Part shown: one piece after another, positions 3,182 through 38,733 of the stretch | Position numbering within the stretch: the stretch's first letter is position 1 | Layout of the letters: each line of letters begins with the position of its first letter | Virus record (IMG/VR): IMGVR_UViG_3300017780_003104 | Span: 128,001-192,000 of that record | Source: a virus | Lineage: Duplodnaviria > Caudoviricetes | Length of the DNA stretch: 64,000 nt | Direction: 5' to 3' (one strand) | The notes under the pieces: model-generated | What the model was told of the DNA's origin: nothing | The model's input: only the letters and a program-made list of their open reading frames with translations | Databases searched by the model: none | Translations under genes and position numbers: made by a program

Positions 3182-3753
3182 TTGATTATTCACAAGACTT
3201 AAAAAACAAGTGTAAACGGTGGCATATATCGGAATATACCGATCCCGTATTGACAGATCCAAAATTTGAATATTGGTCTGGTTCTGGTAGTTCTATACAC
3301 CATCATTATGGTGATGGTGGGCTACTTAAACACACTCATGAAGTCTTTACTTACTGTGAAGTGATATCACAACAACATAATTCGACTTGTCATGGAGATA
3401 AAAGACTTAATCATAAGGAATTATTAATTAGTGCTATTTGGCATGATTATGGTAAGATTTGGGATTATCAAAAAGACGATAATGGTGTTTGGGGAAAGCA
3501 TAATAACCATGCTCGACAAATTCATCACATTTCAAGATCCGCGATCCAATTTCAGACTTGGTATTACTCAAGACTGACCACACCAATCCACGATATAGTT
3601 GCAGATAATATTACTCATAATATTCTAGCACATCATGGTATGAGAGAATGGGGGAGTCCTGTTGCTCCTGCTACGAGAGAAGCATGGGTGTTGCATCTTG
3701 CTGATAACCTATCTGCAAGACTTGACGATTTAGATAAACACGATAGATTTTAA
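3178..3753 (+). CDS. HD-domain phosphohydrolase (YhaM-like)
   Basis: HHYGDGGLLKHT, WHDYGKI, HNILAHHG..EWGSP, LHLADNLSA. Confidence 0.8.
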   Translation: MIDYSQDLKNKCKRWHISEYTDPVLTDPKFEYWSGSGSSIHHHYGDGGLLKHTHEVFTYCEVISQQHNSTCHGDKRLNHKELLISAIWHDYGKIWDYQKDDNGVWGKHNNHARQIHHISRSAIQFQTWYYSRLTTPIHDIVADNITHNILAHHGMREWGSPVAPATREAWVLHLADNLSARLDDLDKHDRF

Positions 3754-9325: not shown

Positions 9326-9961
9326 ATGCAAACTCGTTATAAATACAACAGAACAAAACATCTTCCATGGTCCCCCGGTGCAACTTCAGATGATAAGATT
9401 CTTAAGGACACTTCTTGCTTTAATGGTAAGACGGTAATCATTACTGAGAAGATGGATGGTGAAAATTCCACTCTTTATAGTGATTATTATCATGCACGTT
9501 CATTAGATGGTAGGGATCATCCTTCACGTTCATGGATTAAACAGTTTCATGCATCTATTAAGAATGACATTCCAGAAGGATGGCGTATATGTGGTGAAAA
9601 CCTTTATGCAAAACATTCCATTGGATATGATAAGCTAAAATCATATTTCTATTGTTTCAGTATTTGGGATGATACTAACTATTGTTTATCTTGGAAAGAC
9701 ACTGTAGAGTTTTGTCAGTTGTTAGGTATTGAACATGTTAAGGTTTTTAAGACTTTGAAGTGGGACGAATTAACAGTAAAGAATTTCTTAATTGATTCTG
9801 AAAAAGAGGAAGGTTATGCTGTTCGTAATGTTGGTGGATTTCTATATGAAGACTTTGGAAGTAACGTAGCGAAATGGGTAAGACCAAATCACGTAACCAC
9901 TTCGACCCATTGGCTACATTCGGAAGTGATACCAAACAAGTTAATTAAAACCGAAGTATAA
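9326..9961 (+). CDS. second RNA ligase family protein
   Basis: KYNRTKHLPWSPG..SDD, TEKMDGEN, ICGENLYAKHSI, EGYAVR, KWVR; start moved to ATG 9326. Confidence 0.8.
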   Translation: MQTRYKYNRTKHLPWSPGATSDDKILKDTSCFNGKTVIITEKMDGENSTLYSDYYHARSLDGRDHPSRSWIKQFHASIKNDIPEGWRICGENLYAKHSIGYDKLKSYFYCFSIWDDTNYCLSWKDTVEFCQLLGIEHVKVFKTLKWDELTVKNFLIDSEKEEGYAVRNVGGFLYEDFGSNVAKWVRPNHVTTSTHWLHSEVIPNKLIKTEV

Positions 9962-17492: not shown

Positions 17493-18998
17493 ATGATTAC
17501 AAATCCCTTAACACAAACAGATGCTTATAAATTATCTCATCACGGGTTTATGGACCCATTGACGGAATATATTTACGCTAACCAAACACCAAGAGGTAGT
17601 AGTTACCTACCAGTTCTGAAACAATTTTATGATGATAAGTCCGTGATCTTCGGGTTACAACATTTCATCATTGATTTCCTAATTAATGATTATAACACTG
17701 GATTCTTCAATCTCCCAAAGGAGACTGTGATCAAGAAATTCAAACGTAGGTGTGATGCATATCTAGGAAAGGATAATGTTGATATGACTCGTTTTGAAGA
17801 ATTACATGATCTTGGATATCTTCCAATTCGTATCAAGGCACTACCAGAGGGTAGCAGAGTTAATGTTAAAGTTCCATATTTTACCATTACTAATACTCAC
17901 CCTAAATTTGCTTGGCTTACTAATTATCTTGAAACTATTATTTCCTGTGAAACTTGGAAACCGATTACCAATGCCACTATCGCATTTGAATTCCGTAAGA
18001 TGTTTAATAAGTTTGCTATGGAAACAGTTGGAAATACCGATGGTGTCTGTTTTCAAGGACATGGATTTGAATTTCGTGGTATGAGTGGGAGACACGATTC
18101 TGCTATTAATGGTGCGGCATTCCTTTTAAGCTTTATGGGAACAGATACTATTCCTGCTATTGATTTACTTGAAGATTATTATAATGCTGATGCCGATAAA
18201 GAACTTATTGCTGCTTCTGTTCCAGCATCCGAACATAGCGTAAGTAGTCTTGGAACTGCATTAACAGGGGAGTTGGATTTCTTTAGAGATGCCATCACAA
18301 AACATTATCCAACTGGTATCGTTAGTCTTGTTAGTGACACCTACGACTACTTTAAAGTCATCACTGAGTATGCAACAATTCTTAAAGATGATATCTTAAA
18401 TCGTCAACCCAATGAACTTGGATTAGCTAAAGTTGTATTTAGACCTGATAGTGGAAATCCGGTCAATATTATTTGTGGTGATCCTAATGCTCCTATTGGT
18501 AGTAATGAATACAAAGGCTCCGTTGAGTGTTTATGGGAAATCTTTGGAGGGACTGTATCTGAACAAGGTTATAAGACATTAAACCAAAGGGTGGGATTAA
18601 TCTATGGAGATTCTATCACTCAACAAAGAGCGTATGATATTTTAACTCGTCTCAAAGAAAAAGGATTTGCATCTAATAATATTGTATTCGGGGTTGGGTC
18701 TTATACTTTAAATCTATTAACGCGTGATTGTTTGGGTATGGCTATTAAGGCTACTTGGGCGCAAGTTGATGGTGTGGGTTACGATATTTATAAAGATCCT
18801 ATCACTGATGATGGTCTTAAAAAGTCTGCCAAAGGTCGTCTTAGGGTTGATCTAATTGATGGTGAATATGTTTTGAAAGATCAATGCACGGAAGAAGAAG
18901 AATCTGGAGGAGAACTCAAGACAGTTTTTCTTGATGGTAAATTGATTGTTGATCAAACACTTACTGAGATTCGTGCAAGAGTCGCAACACAATTCTAA
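17493..18998 (+). CDS. nicotinamide phosphoribosyltransferase-like (Nampt/Namat candidate)
   Basis: TDAYKLSH, HGFEFRG, SVPASEHSV, VSDTYD, RPDSG, GLIYGDSIT, FGVGSYT, KKSAKG. Confidence 0.9.
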   Translation: MITNPLTQTDAYKLSHHGFMDPLTEYIYANQTPRGSSYLPVLKQFYDDKSVIFGLQHFIIDFLINDYNTGFFNLPKETVIKKFKRRCDAYLGKDNVDMTRFEELHDLGYLPIRIKALPEGSRVNVKVPYFTITNTHPKFAWLTNYLETIISCETWKPITNATIAFEFRKMFNKFAMETVGNTDGVCFQGHGFEFRGMSGRHDSAINGAAFLLSFMGTDTIPAIDLLEDYYNADADKELIAASVPASEHSVSSLGTALTGELDFFRDAITKHYPTGIVSLVSDTYDYFKVITEYATILKDDILNRQPNELGLAKVVFRPDSGNPVNIICGDPNAPIGSNEYKGSVECLWEIFGGTVSEQGYKTLNQRVGLIYGDSITQQRAYDILTRLKEKGFASNNIVFGVGSYTLNLLTRDCLGMAIKATWAQVDGVGYDIYKDPITDDGLKKSAKGRLRVDLIDGEYVLKDQCTEEEESGGELKTVFLDGKLIVDQTLTEIRARVATQF

Positions 18999-18999
18999 T

Positions 19000-19470
19000 A
19001 TGAAACATATAGTAATTAAAGCACCAGAAAGAAAGCACATTCACCAAGATATACTTAGCGTATTTTTAGCTGGTTCTATCGAAATGGGAACCGCTGAAAA
19101 CTGGCAAGATAAAGTTATTGATGGGCTTTCTATTCATCATCGTATAGCGTTCTTAAATCCTCGTAGGGATGATTGGGATAGCACATGGACACAAGACCTC
19201 AATAATCCACAATTTTATGATCAAGTGACTTGGGAGCTTAACATGTTGAATAAGGCGGATATTATAGTGATGTATTTCGATCCAAACACTAAGTCTCCTA
19301 TCAGTCTTCTTGAACTTGGATTGTATGCAGGTAGTGGAAAACTTATTGTGTGTTGTCCTGATGGATTCTGGAGAAAGGGTAACGTTGATATCGTATGTCA
19401 ACGTTTCAACATTCCAGTATTCACCAATATTGAAACTCTTTTAATGGAAGTGAAGAATCAAATTAATTAA
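19000..19470 (+). CDS. nucleoside 2-deoxyribosyltransferase-like protein
   Basis: VFLAGSI, NPRRDDW, QVTWEL, SPISLLELG; start moved to ATG 19000. Confidence 0.8.
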   Translation: MKHIVIKAPERKHIHQDILSVFLAGSIEMGTAENWQDKVIDGLSIHHRIAFLNPRRDDWDSTWTQDLNNPQFYDQVTWELNMLNKADIIVMYFDPNTKSPISLLELGLYAGSGKLIVCCPDGFWRKGNVDIVCQRFNIPVFTNIETLLMEVKNQIN

Positions 19471-20432: not shown

Positions 20433-21230
20433 ATGAATAACAAAGACGGACTAGGAGACAGAATAAAAAATTACGAAAGTATTTCAGAGCATTACTTTCT
20501 ACCAAAGACTCCGATTATTATTCGCGTTGATGGTAAAAGTTTTCATACGTGGACTAAAGGTTGTCAAAGACCTTTCGATCAAACGCTGATCACTTGTATG
20601 TTTGAGTCTGCTAAAGAAGTAGCTAAACAAATGCAAGGTTGTAAAGCTTTGTATGCTCAATCGGATGAAGTAACATTTGTTCTTACTGATGATACTACTC
20701 TTGATTCACAACAATGGTTTGGCGGTAGACAGAACAAGATTGAAAGTGTTACTGCTGCAATGATGACAGCATACTTTAATAAGAATTGGTTACATTCTGT
20801 TCCTAGACATATGGTTGATTATGATTTTCACGTAGATTACACCCCCGCTATCTTTGATGCCCGTGCTTTTCAATGTCCTAAAGATGATGTTGCTAATGTC
20901 TTTCTATGGAGAGTAAAGGATTGGGAACGTAATAGTCTCAATATGTATTGTGAACAGTTCTTCTCTCATAAGGAACTGCAAGGTCAAGGTCGTGCTGATA
21001 GACATGAAATGCTTCATAAGATTGGACATAATTGGGCTACTGAATGCACCGATCAACAAAAGAATGGTTCGTGGTATTCTCCGGGAAAACCTGATAAGTT
21101 CAACCTCACTAATTACTATGATATCGATGATTATATCTTTCGTGACGGTATTGCTTATGTAATGTCAAAGAAGATGCAATCAGAGGATTTAAGTTGGATG
21201 AGTAAAATGATTGTAAAGAGAATGGGTTAA
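20433..21230 (+). CDS. tRNA(His) guanylyltransferase Thg1-like
   Basis: IRVDGKSFH, YAQSDEVT, WFGGR..KIES, FDARAF, WRVKDWERNS. Confidence 0.9.
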   Translation: MNNKDGLGDRIKNYESISEHYFLPKTPIIIRVDGKSFHTWTKGCQRPFDQTLITCMFESAKEVAKQMQGCKALYAQSDEVTFVLTDDTTLDSQQWFGGRQNKIESVTAAMMTAYFNKNWLHSVPRHMVDYDFHVDYTPAIFDARAFQCPKDDVANVFLWRVKDWERNSLNMYCEQFFSHKELQGQGRADRHEMLHKIGHNWATECTDQQKNGSWYSPGKPDKFNLTNYYDIDDYIFRDGIAYVMSKKMQSEDLSWMSKMIVKRMG

Positions 21231-22639: not shown

Positions 22640-22667
22640 TTGACAAATCAAAAAACTAAACTAAGAT
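22640..22667 (+). promoter_or_regulatory. sigma70-like promoter TTGACA-N16-TAAGAT, 6 nt before ATG
   Basis: Read directly; a similar TTGACA-N16-TAAACT lies at 13568-13595. Confidence 0.55.
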
Positions 22668-22673
22668 AAACAC

Positions 22674-24329
22674 ATGTTTGAGAATAAAAGAAACGCAGAA
22701 GTCGTGACTGTTAAATCAGTTACTCGTAAGGAAGTTAACGCATTCCTAAACAATGCTAAAGCAGAATCATCCAAGACTCGTTCTGGTAACGGGGCATTGA
22801 AATTCAGTTCAAGTGGTGATTCGTTTACCGATCAGTTTACTAAGGCTGGTAAGTATAAGGAACCTCGTAAGTTCTCTCAAATCGCACAAGATTGTGAAAT
22901 GTTGTGGGGTGAAGACCCTCTCAAGTGTGTGAAGTTCGCATTGTTTCTTCGTACTATTCCTCGCGTAGTTAATCTTCCTGATGGAAGTAAGACTGAACTT
23001 CCTCAAAAGGGAACCGAGTTGAAGCATGAAGCAATTATGCGTATGCTTTGGTTGAGTGATAAGTCTCCTCAAGCATTCTGGAATAACATTCTATTGTTTG
23101 TTTCTCTTGGATCTTGGCACGATGTTTTCACTATGCTTCAATATGATCTTAGCTACAACGGTTGGAATAATCGTAAGCTTGATTGGGATAAGTTTGGTGA
23201 GTTGATTCTTGCTGGTCTTAACAATAAGAACACCTGTGATCTTATTAAGAAGTATCTTCCTCAAATCAAGTCTCGTAGTCAAGCTACGACTATTGATGCT
23301 CAATCCAACAATGCTATTGCTAAGTGGATTTGCTCTCTAGTCTTTGGTAACAAGGAAAGCGCATCTTCATACAAGGCTTATCGTAAGATCAAGACTAGTG
23401 GAACCGCGCATGATTGGCAAAAGCTTATCTCCCAAAAGAGAATGAGTGAATTGGATTTCAATAAAATTCATGGTCGTGCTCTATCAATTCTTGTTAAGAG
23501 TAAGTTCTTAAAGAACCAAGGACTTAGCGATAAGTATGCATCTTGGATTACTGCACCTACCACCAAGGAAGTTAAGTATACTGGATTCGTCCATGAACTC
23601 TTCGAAGGTAACTGGAAGAACGATAAGAACAACGAAGCAACTATCAATAAGCAATTCGATACTCTTGTTCAAAAGGCAAGAACTAATGAAGTTACTGATT
23701 TGATTGTCGTTCGTGATACTTCTGGATCGATGTCTTCAATTTGTCCCGGCACTAAGTCTTCATGTCTTGATGTTGGAAAGGCAATCGCTCTATACTTTAG
23801 TGAATTCCTTCAAGGAACCTTTGCGGGTCATTGGATTGAATTCAACTCTGATGCTAAACTTCAAAAATGGGTTGGTCAAACTCCCGTTGATAAGTGGAAG
23901 AATGATAAGTCAAGCTTTTATGGTGGAACTAACTTTCAAAGTGTTGTTAATCTTCTCGCTAAGATGAAGAAAGAGGGAACACCTGAAAGTGATTTCCCTA
24001 GCGGTATCCTTTGCATTTCCGATGCAGAATTCAATCCTACTTCATTAGGTAAAACTAATGTTGAGACTGCGTTGACTACTCTTCGTAATGCTGGATTCTC
24101 CAAGGCTTATGTTGATAACTTTGTGATTATTCTTTGGAACCTTCAAAATAGTTATTATGGTAAAGGGTCTGGTGAAAAGTTTGAGACTGGTAAAGAAGTA
24201 AACAACGTTTACTATCTGGGTGGGTATAGTGCCTCCGCAGTTAGTTTCCTTTCAGCTAAGATCAAGACAACCTATGATCTAATCAACGAGTGTCTTAATC
24301 AGGAAGTTTTGAATATGGTTGAGATTTAA
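22674..24329 (+). CDS. TROVE/Ro60-like (DUF2828-type) helical domain + C-terminal vWA domain
   Basis: vWA MIDAS-like VVRDTSGSM, GGTNFQSV, CISDAEF, ILWNL; N-terminal FSSSGDSFTDQF, LGSWHDVF. Confidence 0.7.
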   Translation: MFENKRNAEVVTVKSVTRKEVNAFLNNAKAESSKTRSGNGALKFSSSGDSFTDQFTKAGKYKEPRKFSQIAQDCEMLWGEDPLKCVKFALFLRTIPRVVNLPDGSKTELPQKGTELKHEAIMRMLWLSDKSPQAFWNNILLFVSLGSWHDVFTMLQYDLSYNGWNNRKLDWDKFGELILAGLNNKNTCDLIKKYLPQIKSRSQATTIDAQSNNAIAKWICSLVFGNKESASSYKAYRKIKTSGTAHDWQKLISQKRMSELDFNKIHGRALSILVKSKFLKNQGLSDKYASWITAPTTKEVKYTGFVHELFEGNWKNDKNNEATINKQFDTLVQKARTNEVTDLIVVRDTSGSMSSICPGTKSSCLDVGKAIALYFSEFLQGTFAGHWIEFNSDAKLQKWVGQTPVDKWKNDKSSFYGGTNFQSVVNLLAKMKKEGTPESDFPSGILCISDAEFNPTSLGKTNVETALTTLRNAGFSKAYVDNFVIILWNLQNSYYGKGSGEKFETGKEVNNVYYLGGYSASAVSFLSAKIKTTYDLINECLNQEVLNMVEI

Positions 24330-24558
24330 ATATCTTAAACTTTCTATCTAAAAAGAGAGTGGAGTCTTTGTAAATAAAGTTTCCGATGCGACCAACTTTA
24401 TCTAGAATCAATAGACAAGCCGACTGATTTGGAAAAATTTACAATGACAATAATAACAGCAAAATTAGAAGAGGTTGACAAATCTAAATTTCATGATTAA
24501 ATAAAGATCCGATGAGGTTTCGGTAGCTTCCTATGGCGAACAAATAAAACTACCAATA

Positions 24559-25461
24559 AGATTGCTTCAGCAAATATATTTTTATTTAAGGAAAAACAAA
24601 AGCAATCTGATAAGAGGACAAACTACAAATACAAAAAATCAAACGTCCTCTGATAAGAATAAGTAACAGCAAAAACAATAAAAAATAAAAGCAAATATGC
24701 TAAACGATGAAAGTCGTCCGGGTATCCTCACCATATTAGAGGTTGTAATATGGAGCTTAGAAGGGAGTCAATCTTAACTTATTCTGATAAAGTCATAAAC
24801 TGCAAATAAAAATACTATTATGCAAAATAGCCTGTCGGTGGGTCCGAGGTAACTAAAACGGTTCGATTCCGTATCTATGACTTGCATAAAATCTCTTCAG
24901 CAAATAACGGAACGTAAAACTCCCATACGTGTGGTTCAAATCCCGCTGCTCACACTTTATTAAAAAGTGGGTATAGCCAAGTGGTAAGGCAGGAGTCCAA
25001 AAACAATGAGATTTAATAGAAATACTCCAGCAAATAACGCAACAAGGAACCGTGTGTCGAACGTTCGATTCGTTCTCTCCCACCATATAAGTAAAATGGG
25101 AGGTAGCTCAGTTGGTAGAGCAACGGTAAGCAAAAAACATAGTATTTCGATAGGATTATATTCAGCAAATATACTACTCAACTGTTAATTGAAAAAAGTA
25201 AAAGTAATCCGATAAGAATTTCAGCAGCATAATATCGTAACTATAACGACTCTAAGGTAGCTTAGGTTTGGGAAACCAATACGGCGATGGTAGATAGGTA
25301 AACTAAGTTCTTTATAGAATATGTAAACCCTACGGGACGAACGATTGAATATTTATATATTCTTTAATGTGTCAGTGAAAGATGAAATTCTGATAAAATT
25401 AGCAACAGCAAACCAAACAAAAATTTGACTTTTAATCAAACAATAAAATGCTAATTTGATA
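24559..25461 (+). ncRNA. array of nine tandem stem-CAGCAAA-cargo-stem-GATA RNA modules (Y RNA-like)
   Basis: Nine different but self-complementary 7-9 bp closing stems; shared CAGCAAA-like bulge; 4-5 nt GATA-like linkers. Confidence 0.85.
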
Positions 25462-25462
25462 C

Positions 25463-25741
25463 ATGGAAATATTTTATATCATAACACTATCATTCATATT
25501 GAATGTATTATGGTCAATGATGGGTAGAGCTAGAAATAGAAACAACCTCATTTATCATGGTGTATTAGTATTTCTATCAAATCTATTATGGATTCTTTTT
25601 ATGAAAAAGTTAATGACTTCCGATACGGAATCTTTAATATATGGAAGTATTGGTGGGACTATTGGTGCCATTTGTGGACAACCATTATCAATGTTTATTG
25701 AACGTGTGTTGAATGCTAAGAGTGATGATCACATAGAATAA
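25463..25741 (+). CDS. membrane protein
   Basis: Three hydrophobic segments. Confidence 0.65.
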   Translation: MEIFYIITLSFILNVLWSMMGRARNRNNLIYHGVLVFLSNLLWILFMKKLMTSDTESLIYGSIGGTIGAICGQPLSMFIERVLNAKSDDHIE

Positions 25742-38639: not shown

Positions 38640-38733
38640 ATGAGTGTGACCCGAATTGGTTAAGGGCGCGGTTTCATAAACCGTTATGAGGTTGATAGCC
38701 TCTTTGAGAGTTCGAGTCTCTCCACTCATACCA
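38640..38733 (+). tRNA. tRNA with CAU anticodon (Met or Ile2) and long variable arm
   Basis: ATGAGTG/CACTCAT acceptor; loop TT-CAT-AA; GAGG/CCTC variable arm; A73 + CCA. Confidence 0.85.

Follow-up and report, generated by a model that had tools for sequence, protein, structure and literature searches.

A Ro60-like phage protein gene followed by nine predicted RNA units with a common handle and varied cargos

Canonical Ro60 proteins bind Y RNAs that are encoded next door, and the bacterial Y RNA YrlA includes a mimic of tRNA (Chen et al. 2014, PMC4201824). In Salmonella, the locus follows the order rsr-yrlBA-rtcBA (PMC4201824). A phage-borne case is known from the Thermus phage phiLo, whose Ro60 binds two neighbouring Y-like RNAs, Yrl1 and Yrl2, as well as the host PNPase (PMC12135203; PDB 9KOP, 9L5Y). 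Here, we describe a locus found in a 64,000-nt stretch of DNA, referred to as the window, that spans positions 128,001 to 192,000 of the IMG/VR virus record IMGVR_UViG_3300017780_003104 (Caudoviricetes). The source phage genome is complete, measures 211.7 kb with direct terminal repeats and is of freshwater origin. Within the window, a gene for a Ro60-like protein is followed on the same strand by nine units that appear to encode small RNAs with one common handle. The locus resembles Ro60 and its Y RNAs in the ring-plus-vWA fold of the protein and in the noncoding RNA genes that adjoin the protein gene. Our analysis suggests, with a probability of roughly 0.62, that it specifies a ribonucleoprotein of the Ro60/Y-RNA type, divergent and distinguished by a new handle and an array of multiple cargos.

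The Ro60-like protein and the units downstream of its gene

The locus comprises the following features, given in window coordinates. Here and below, L numbers denote loci of related phages and R1 is a covariance model of the short units.

22674 to 24329, + strand: Ro60-like protein, 551 aa, DUF2828/DUF7788 family (Pfam, PHROGs, AlphaFold2 with Foldseek)
24522 to 24558, + strand: leader hairpin GGUAG...CUACC followed by AAUA, without CAGCAA, directly 5' of unit 1 (fold; kept in L012)
24559 to 24608, + strand: U1, short, 50 nt, stem AGATTGCT/AGCAATCT (Rfam Dicty_Class_I_RNA 30.2 bits, E 0.0085; R1 50.5 bits)
24613 to 24651, + strand: U2, short, 39 nt, stem AGAGGAC/GTCCTCT (R1 35.8 bits, outside its training set)
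24656 to 24785, + strand: U3, 130 nt, conserved multi-hairpin cargo (orthologues in L012, L005, L013 and L015)
24790 to 24883, + strand: U4, 94 nt, hairpin plus T-arm-like hairpin (ACGGTTCGATTCCGT) (orthologues in L012, L013 and Leptolyngbya phage Lbo-JY46)
24889 to 25014, + strand: U5, 126 nt, permuted tRNA look-alike cargo (sequence, detected closed acceptor stem, orthologues)
25019 to 25148, + strand: U6, 130 nt, permuted tRNA look-alike with encoded CCA, tRNA-like core 25051-25125 (Rfam YrlA match, minimum free energy fold)
25153 to 25210, + strand: U7, short, 58 nt, stem GGATTAT/GTAATCC (R1 61 bits)
25215 to 25391, + strand: U8, 177 nt, multi-hairpin cargo with a 5' part that copies 23S helix 69 plus the CCUAAGGUAG after it (rrn alignment, fold)
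25236 to 25261, + strand: 23S rRNA-like segment inside U8 (local alignment to E. coli 23S)
25396 to 25457, + strand: U9, short, 62 nt, stem AAATTAGCA/TGCTAATTT (R1 63.6 bits)

An earlier note on this DNA had proposed a TROVE/Ro60-like protein, which we could bear out at the level of the fold. The 551-aa protein was modelled with AlphaFold2 from an alignment of 32 relatives, yielding a mean predicted local distance difference test score of 80.4. A Foldseek search of the model against the PDB returned Ro60 structures as all of its top 12 matches, with full-length alignments and E-values ranging from 4e-8 for the best match (9kop) to 3.6e-4. These structures comprise Ro60 of the Thermus phage phiLo, Xenopus and human as well as Deinococcus Rsr, and vWA structures were also returned for the C-terminal domain. 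The best Swiss-Prot structure matches include Ro60 proteins and the Tetrahymena telomerase component p80, another TROVE protein, and matches among AFDB clusters include DUF7788 proteins. In the model, a TROVE-like helical ring is formed by residues ~30-335 and a vWA domain by residues ~340-525. The metal ion-dependent adhesion site (MIDAS) motif D348-x-S350-x-S352 is intact, and D348, S350, S352, T419 and D450 are invariant among the 32 relatives (alignment A1). Sequence searches matched phrog_850, annotated as 'RNA-binding protein', in PHROGs (E 3e-30) and DUF7788 at residues 344-525 in Pfam (E 5e-10), the sole Pfam family matched at E <= 1. A phmmer search against PDB sequences gave noise only and did not find Ro60; one Atlas cluster of relatives mixes TROVE (47% of members), DUF7788 and DUF2828 annotations. 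Taken together, the predicted structure supports a protein that is Ro60-like in fold (TROVE ring plus vWA/MIDAS), though it lies outside Pfam TROVE by sequence. Its gene is the one DUF7788 gene in the whole genome.

The nine units reported in the earlier note were all confirmed at their coordinates and lie head to tail over ~0.9 kb of the + strand (24559-25457). A 7-9 bp stem closes each unit end to end, CAGCAA (usually CAGCAAATA) follows 0-3 nt past the 5' arm, and an interior of 25-160 nt leads to an A-rich stretch before the 3' arm. The last GATA occupies 25458-25461, and the next open reading frame begins at 25463. The general plan of a stem, a CAGCAAA-like motif and a GATA linker stands as first described, but not in every unit: the motif is degenerate in U2 (CTACAA), U4 (CTGCAA) and U8 (CAGCAT), and the linker is GCATA after U4 and AATA after U5. 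The U2 orthologue in L012 has an intact CAGCAA and a cargo that is 18 nt longer.

A strict parser that demands the motif, a stem of at least 6 bp and a GATA-like tail recovered seven of the nine units, compared with a mean of 0.04 and a maximum of 1 in 300 shuffles of the region. On the rest of the 64-kb window it found weak matches only, one on the + and two on the - strand. Model R1, which was built solely from short units of this clade and with U2 excluded from training, matched U1, U2, U7 and U9 only when run over the 211.7-kb genome, with no match outside the array. Furthermore, RNAfold closes all nine units by the proposed stem.

Structural conservation and recurrence beside homologous genes

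Valid controls for structure are shuffles, strand asymmetry and changes between orthologues. Alignment A6 is 100% paired with 119 double changes; these numbers are circular, since the units were chosen for pairing, and serve for description only. We identified orthologous units by the similarity of their cargos and compared their stems. In U2, AGAGGAC/GTCCTCT of the window is replaced by AGAAGAC/GTCTTCT in L012 (95% protein identity), and in U9 a C-G pair has become T-A (...AGCA/TGCT... versus ...AGTA/TACT... in L012). Comparison with L005, L013 and Lbo-JY46 revealed a number of double changes in U3 and U4; among the U3 orthologues of L012, L005, L013 and L015, compensatory changes affect the closing stem and an inner 8-bp hairpin. 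These compensatory changes substantiate the previous view that stems which differ and nonetheless pair reflect selection on structure. The units are also modular, with interchangeable cargos, as had been proposed: U6 is absent from L012 with its neighbouring units in place, and in L013 the cargo types follow a different order.

Freshwater contigs from the metagenome runs X3 and X4 match the window to the end of the U4 cargo (24876) and then enter a different stem, continuing into a unit that resembles the 100-nt unit of L013 (AGAACAT taa CAGCAAATA). This divergence suggests unit turnover between strains. Metagenome joints that hint at unit deletions have sides of 21-22 nt and were not used.

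By tblastn, the protein family is present in 456 phage records. The best match is the Leptolyngbya phage Lbo-JY46 with 43% identity; the other homologues, from Enterococcus, Listeria, Bacillus, Felix O1-type, Campylobacter, Aeromonas and other phages, share ~22-27% identity. A blastn search with the array against 50,697 phage records gave no match, because the RNAs are too divergent for a DNA search. However, inspection by eye and by parser revealed that several cultured phages have units with this handle (closing stem, unpaired CAGCAA, 3' CU-G) next to the gene. Lbo-JY46 has five units with GATA linkers, and Enterococcus phage EFDG1 has three, two of which carry a tRNA-like cargo. Three units are found in Listeria phage P100, where RtcB adjoins the Ro60-like homologue. 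In Bacillus phage MrDarsey and E. coli phage adrianh, units are scattered within the tRNA array, and Campylobacter phage Los1 likewise has same-handle units beside the gene.

To this we added an IMG/VR set of 80 loci with relatives at 36-85% protein identity. Here, the parser counts 209 units on the strand of the gene; the reverse strand has 21 and shuffled sequence 18. The units mostly lie directly past the stop codon of the gene, and 43 of the 80 loci hold at least two units. In the 22 loci without a parser match, R1 gave 12 matches in eight loci; every one is on the + strand, and the majority lie upstream of the gene. R1 also matched units beside the homologue in EFDG1, P100, MrDarsey, adrianh and Bas63, and found nothing on the opposite strand of the tested loci, in the E. 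coli rrn operon or at an Erwinia jumbo-phage locus. An AG...CU closing stem, CAGCAA 0-4 nt past the 5' arm and a DUF2828/DUF7788 gene on the same strand within ~3 kb define a working family to which the array belongs. The expectation that homologous genes would be accompanied by similar arrays was confirmed, including by this covariance-model search of phage loci.

The Felixounavirus Bas63 deserves particular mention, as its gp130 is Ro60-like, lies upstream of a tRNA array and counters the Ppl defence (PhageMaP preprint, 10.1101/2024.10.10.617714). This protein, bas63_0130, is a homologue of the window protein (tblastn E 7e-15). The authors of the preprint guessed that some of the neighbouring Bas63 'tRNAs' might be Y RNAs (10.1101/2024.10.10.617714). 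We find that the Bas63 tRNA array does contain CAGCAA units, located in unannotated spacers and not in the annotated tRNAs, with one of them under a called coding sequence. This 126-nt unit lies on the + strand of MZ501086.1 at 82781-82906 (L099 3482-3607), beneath the minus-strand coding sequence bas63_0137 (locus 3449-3601), which is probably a mis-annotated RNA gene.

Two further observations were made at cultured-phage loci. In P100 (NC_007610.1; L003 1468-2019), tRNA genes flank a match to ROOL RNA that, with 86 bits (E 5e-16), narrowly misses the gathering score of 99.1; the CAGCAA units and the Ro60-like gene follow ~650 nt downstream. In EFDG1 (L002 1030-1130), another YrlA-like tRNA mimic, scoring 28.4 bits, is found between tRNA genes and is without an obvious CAGCAA handle.

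Cargos and genomic context

A survey of 257 units revealed a bimodal length distribution with peaks at ~50-70 nt and ~120-140 nt, about half of the units being short. A T-loop motif is present in 76 of the 121 long units, and of the 16 units with T-arm and D-arm motifs alike, 15 have the T-arm first. Within the array, two of the nine units, U5 and U6, carry a tRNA-like effector of the YrlA type. The minimum free energy fold of U6 shows an inner stem, a T-arm, a loop-closed acceptor stem and a D-arm, and its core (25051-25125) aligns to positions 23-85 of YrlA (RF02553) with 33 bits (E 1.8e-4; gathering score 69). U5 has the same order of T-arm, loop-closed acceptor stem and D-arm. In both units the anticodon loop is absent, and the inner stem opens into the handle instead. 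As judged from their sequences, U5 and U6 are predicted tRNA mimics and not permuted tRNA genes, because the anticodon loop is missing. A functional permuted tRNA gene, as known from Cyanidioschyzon, was considered and rejected: the order is permuted, but there is neither an anticodon stem-loop nor an ARAGORN call. For the same reason, the proposal that the cargos act as decoys for anticodon nucleases of the PrrC/RloC type is ruled against for the tRNA mimics. A comparison of the tRNA-like cargos with the seven tRNAs of the phage revealed no specific counterpart. An encoded CCA, present in U6, was rejected as a general feature of the mimics, being found otherwise in one of 11 tested T-arm units. 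A role of the handle as a MazF-type ACA decoy was likewise rejected, as the base before CAGCAA is an A in only 182 of 255 units.

A second type of mimicry is seen in U8. A segment of this unit equals E. coli 23S 1909-1934 at 23 of 26 bases and comprises the helix-69 loop UAACUAUAA followed by CUAAGGUAGC. The local alignment of U8 to 23S scores 37, compared with a mean of 21.6 and a maximum of 31 for shuffles (z 7.0). Related units in L005, L006, L035 and L033 (52-84% protein identity) have their best rrn match at the same 23S site, and no other rRNA site was matched by any of the 121 long units. The cargos of U3 and U4 show no similarity to E. coli rrn (z at most 1.2) and no Rfam match; they are conserved with covariation across relatives. 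No Rfam family reaches its gathering score anywhere in the array. The notion of RNA-mimic cargos is borne out for the tRNA look-alikes U5 and U6, which are YrlA-like, and for the helix-69 mimic U8; U3 and U4 match neither Rfam nor rRNA.

The surroundings of the units include three further features:

22640 to 22667, + strand: promoter-like site of the Ro60-like gene, TTGACA-16-TAAGAT (consensus scan, 10/12 matches)
24475 to 24503, + strand: promoter-like site of the array, TTGACAAATC...TTAAATA (10-mer in common with the promoter-like site of the gene; kept in L012)
20433 to 21230, + strand: Thg1-like gene (Pfam PF04446, E 1.6e-31)

The site at 22640-22667 is a putative promoter of the Ro60-like gene, and that at 24475-24503 a putative promoter of the array. 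Exact copies of the 10-mer that both have in common occur in the window only at 22640 and 24475; the array site failed the -10 rule of the consensus scan. The -10-like hexamer of the first site ends 6 nt 5' of the ATG of the Ro60-like gene, and no Shine-Dalgarno sequence is present (22640-22676), which would fit a leaderless mRNA.

The Thg1 family comprises tRNA-His guanylyltransferases and enzymes of tRNA 5'-end repair. A Thg1-like gene also lies upstream of the Ro60-like gene in the relatives L004/L005, L012 and L013. No RtcB was found in the 211.7-kb genome, which contains three genes of the PF09414 RNA-ligase family (window 9431-9880; genome 119173-119646 and 121328-121954). The tie to RNA repair raised in the earlier note is represented here by the Thg1-like gene and the three PF09414 genes but not by RtcB. 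No tRNA gene adjoins the array in the clade of the window, and ARAGORN calls none inside the array.

Among the tRNA calls in the window is a 94-nt tRNA-Met(CAT) with a long extra arm (38640-38733, ARAGORN), an unusual length for a Met tRNA. A nucleoside 2-deoxyribosyltransferase-like gene is located at 18946-19470, upstream of the Thg1-like and Ro60-like genes. In the relatives L004/L005 and L012-L014, genes for nicotinamide adenine dinucleotide (NAD) salvage (NAPRTase/NAMPT) and nucleoside 2-deoxyribosyltransferase lie 5' of the Thg1-like and Ro60-like genes; of that set, only the 2-deoxyribosyltransferase-like gene was confirmed in the window itself.

Interpretation and relation to known systems

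How could such a locus work? In the ribonucleoprotein that we propose, the array would be transcribed along the strand of the gene as one precursor, probably from its own promoter at ~24475, and cleavage within or close to the 4-nt GAUA linkers would then release nine small RNAs. The protein would recognise their common handle, i.e., the 7-9 bp stem (5'-AG...CU-3', then G) with an unpaired CAGCAA(AUA) by the 5' arm that faces an A-rich 3' strand, so that the handle stands in for the Ro-binding stem found in Y RNAs. The interior would represent the effector module, provided by simple hairpins (U1, U2, U7 and U9), YrlA-type mimics (U5 and U6), a T-arm RNA (U4), the helix-69 mimic (U8) and a multi-hairpin fold (U3). 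One protein species could thereby be loaded with various look-alikes of translation RNAs. Such look-alikes might recruit host or phage enzymes specific for the tRNA elbow and acceptor or for helix 69, or titrate them, in the service of RNA surveillance and repair or of counter-defence. The particle probably has a role in counter-defence or RNA surveillance. The RNA-repair genes near the locus or elsewhere in the genome (Thg1-like, three PF09414) and the RtcB next to the P100 homologue count toward this Ro/Y reading.

Several observations weigh against it. The 551-aa protein has no sequence match to Pfam TROVE (PF05731), and the TM-scores to Ro60 reported by Foldseek are ~0.5 with high root mean square deviations. 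The link between protein and RNAs is one of genomic association, and no unit lies within 3.5 kb of the homologue in the Erwinia jumbo phage. U2 retains its stem despite a degenerate motif. The folding-energy z-scores are modest for this AT-rich RNA, ranging from -0.04 to -5.1 and thus weakly better than shuffles; the case for structure therefore rests on the comparison between phages and not on folding energy. A freshwater-sediment metatranscriptome, the only one that contained the phage, yielded exact contigs at 24184-24406 and 24807-25069, with equally sparse pieces elsewhere on the phage, and carry-over of DNA is possible. Finally, plaquing on the Ppl strain was restored by gp130 of Bas63 on its own, whether supplied on a plasmid or inserted in T7 (10.1101/2024.10.10.617714), which implies that phage RNAs are not needed for the anti-Ppl activity.

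This last result feeds the main rival explanation, in which the units are real small RNAs whose handle is read by another factor, such as a host RNase, a chaperone or a different protein of the phage. The Ro60-like protein would act independently, e.g., as a defence inhibitor via its vWA/MIDAS, and both would have become neighbours via a shared module of tRNA and RNA metabolism. Besides gp130, which counters Ppl without phage RNAs, this scenario can draw on the Felix O1-type and Bacillus phages, which scatter units inside tRNA arrays and have no dedicated operon, and on the Dictyostelium Class I RNAs, which are bound directly by the RRM protein Rnp1A (PMC7919456). We nevertheless judge it unlikely, though deserving of serious attention. 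In hosts from at least four bacterial phyla, units accompany this gene family while its remaining neighbours vary; the array of this clade has no tRNA gene beside it; and Ro60 proteins, one phage example included, bind RNAs encoded next door. The handle might also be nothing but a clamp for processing or stability, comparable to tRNA punctuation, with cargos that act alone and a protein that is at most a maturation chaperone. The 4-nt linkers indeed imply that the units must be cut apart, units in other phages are interleaved with tRNAs, themselves processing signals, and the leader hairpin, which lacks the motif, also ends in AAUA. A clamp, however, leaves unexplained why an unpaired CAGCAA is invariant from cyanophages to Listeria phages and why the units are strictly linked to one protein family, and in the short units, about half of the total, there is hardly any cargo that would need protection. 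We therefore give this explanation a slim chance.

It is very improbable that the units are DNA-level repeats, such as miniature inverted-repeat elements, recombination sites or replication signals, and not RNA genes. Terminal inverted repeats do flank every unit, and units are gained and lost between strains. Yet the repeats differ from unit to unit and still pair, with compensatory changes between orthologues, and their strand bias relative to the gene is 209 versus 21. G-U pairs are tolerated (U7), the cargos adopt tRNA-like and rRNA-like folds, and no copies occur elsewhere in the genome. A divergent Ro60/Y-RNA-type particle accordingly remains the reading we prefer.

Hundreds of cultured phages carry a member of DUF2828/DUF7788, a large family without known function; among them are Felix O1-type, Listeria P100/A511-type and Enterococcus phages. 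According to Pfam, eukaryotes have the family as well. Its association with a specific RNA family would provide it with a concrete role that can be tested, that of a second kind of Ro/Y-RNA particle. As the array indicates, one handle can carry many mimics of translation RNAs, i.e., tRNA bodies and 23S helix 69. This suggests phage RNA mimicry on a protein platform and offers a natural scaffold-plus-cargo design for RNA display. As one homologue, gp130, has a counter-defence phenotype in E. coli, the hypothesis is directly testable in laboratory phages. We found no paper on DUF2828/DUF7788 RNAs or the ACAGCAA motif and no Rfam family for the unit RNAs, in agreement with the earlier suspicion that the array is undescribed.

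Among known systems, the closest likeness is to Y RNAs, in which the 5' and 3' ends likewise pair into a terminal stem that is joined to an effector module, and which also have links to RNA-repair genes. As in YrlA, some of the effectors mimic a permuted tRNA, with T-arm, loop-closed acceptor and D-arm. The differences are equally clear. In contrast to Ro60, the phage protein belongs to the DUF2828/DUF7788 clade, outside Pfam TROVE by sequence. The phage handle is a short stem of variable sequence with an invariant unpaired CAGCAA, whereas Y RNAs have a conserved bulged Ro-binding helix. The similarity to YrlA, 33 bits here against a gathering score of 69, stems from the tRNA-like core only; the best YrlA score among relatives is 44.9 bits (EFDG1), and the stem part of the model aligns poorly. 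These scores below gathering agree with the prior observation that the handle is not the canonical Ro-binding stem of Y RNA or YrlA. Moreover, unlike Y RNA loci, the phage loci hold up to 9-12 head-to-tail units with 4-nt linkers, and their cargos include non-tRNA folds and a mimic of 23S helix 69. Compared with Bas63, the clade of the window has a dedicated array of units without tRNA genes.

A more distant likeness is to the Class I RNAs of Dictyostelium, which measure 42-65 nt and consist of a terminal stem, an ...ACAGCAA motif past the 5' arm and a variable interior (Kjellin et al. 2021, PMC7919456). The phage units have in common with them the terminal stem, an ACAGCAA-type unpaired motif by the 5' arm, a variable interior, and a G-C closing pair followed by U-G. 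The Class I model (RF01414) matched nine units across the arrays searched, in the window and in relatives, always on the correct strand, and nothing else in ~48 kb. All scores stay below the gathering score of 41.5, with 30.2 bits for U1 and 39.3 for the best relative, and the long units exceed the length of Class I RNAs. Both differ in that only 6-7 of 11 motif positions are common (Class I motif CCUUACAGCAA), and in that Class I RNAs are single genes with a Dictyostelium upstream sequence element (DUSE) promoter ~60 nt upstream, whereas the phage array lies behind one bacterial-type promoter-like site. Class I RNAs are reported as unique to dictyostelids, and their only proven binder is the RRM protein Rnp1A (PMC7919456). 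DDB_G0281243, a protein of unknown function, is one of four proteins pulled down with DdR-21, a Class I RNA (preprint, 10.1101/2020.04.05.026054). Speculatively, and with little probability in our estimate, RNAs with the CAGCAA handle and DUF2828-type proteins could form a third, cross-domain branch of Ro/Y particles, with Class I RNAs as its eukaryotic members and a DUF2828-type partner, for which DDB_G0281243 would be one candidate.

In their organisation, finally, the units recall phage tRNA arrays and the ToxI RNA of ToxIN, where small RNA genes lie head to tail and are released from one transcript; in several phages they are even interleaved with tRNAs. Unlike tRNA arrays and ToxI, the units are neither tRNAs nor identical repeats, and it is the handle alone that they have in common.

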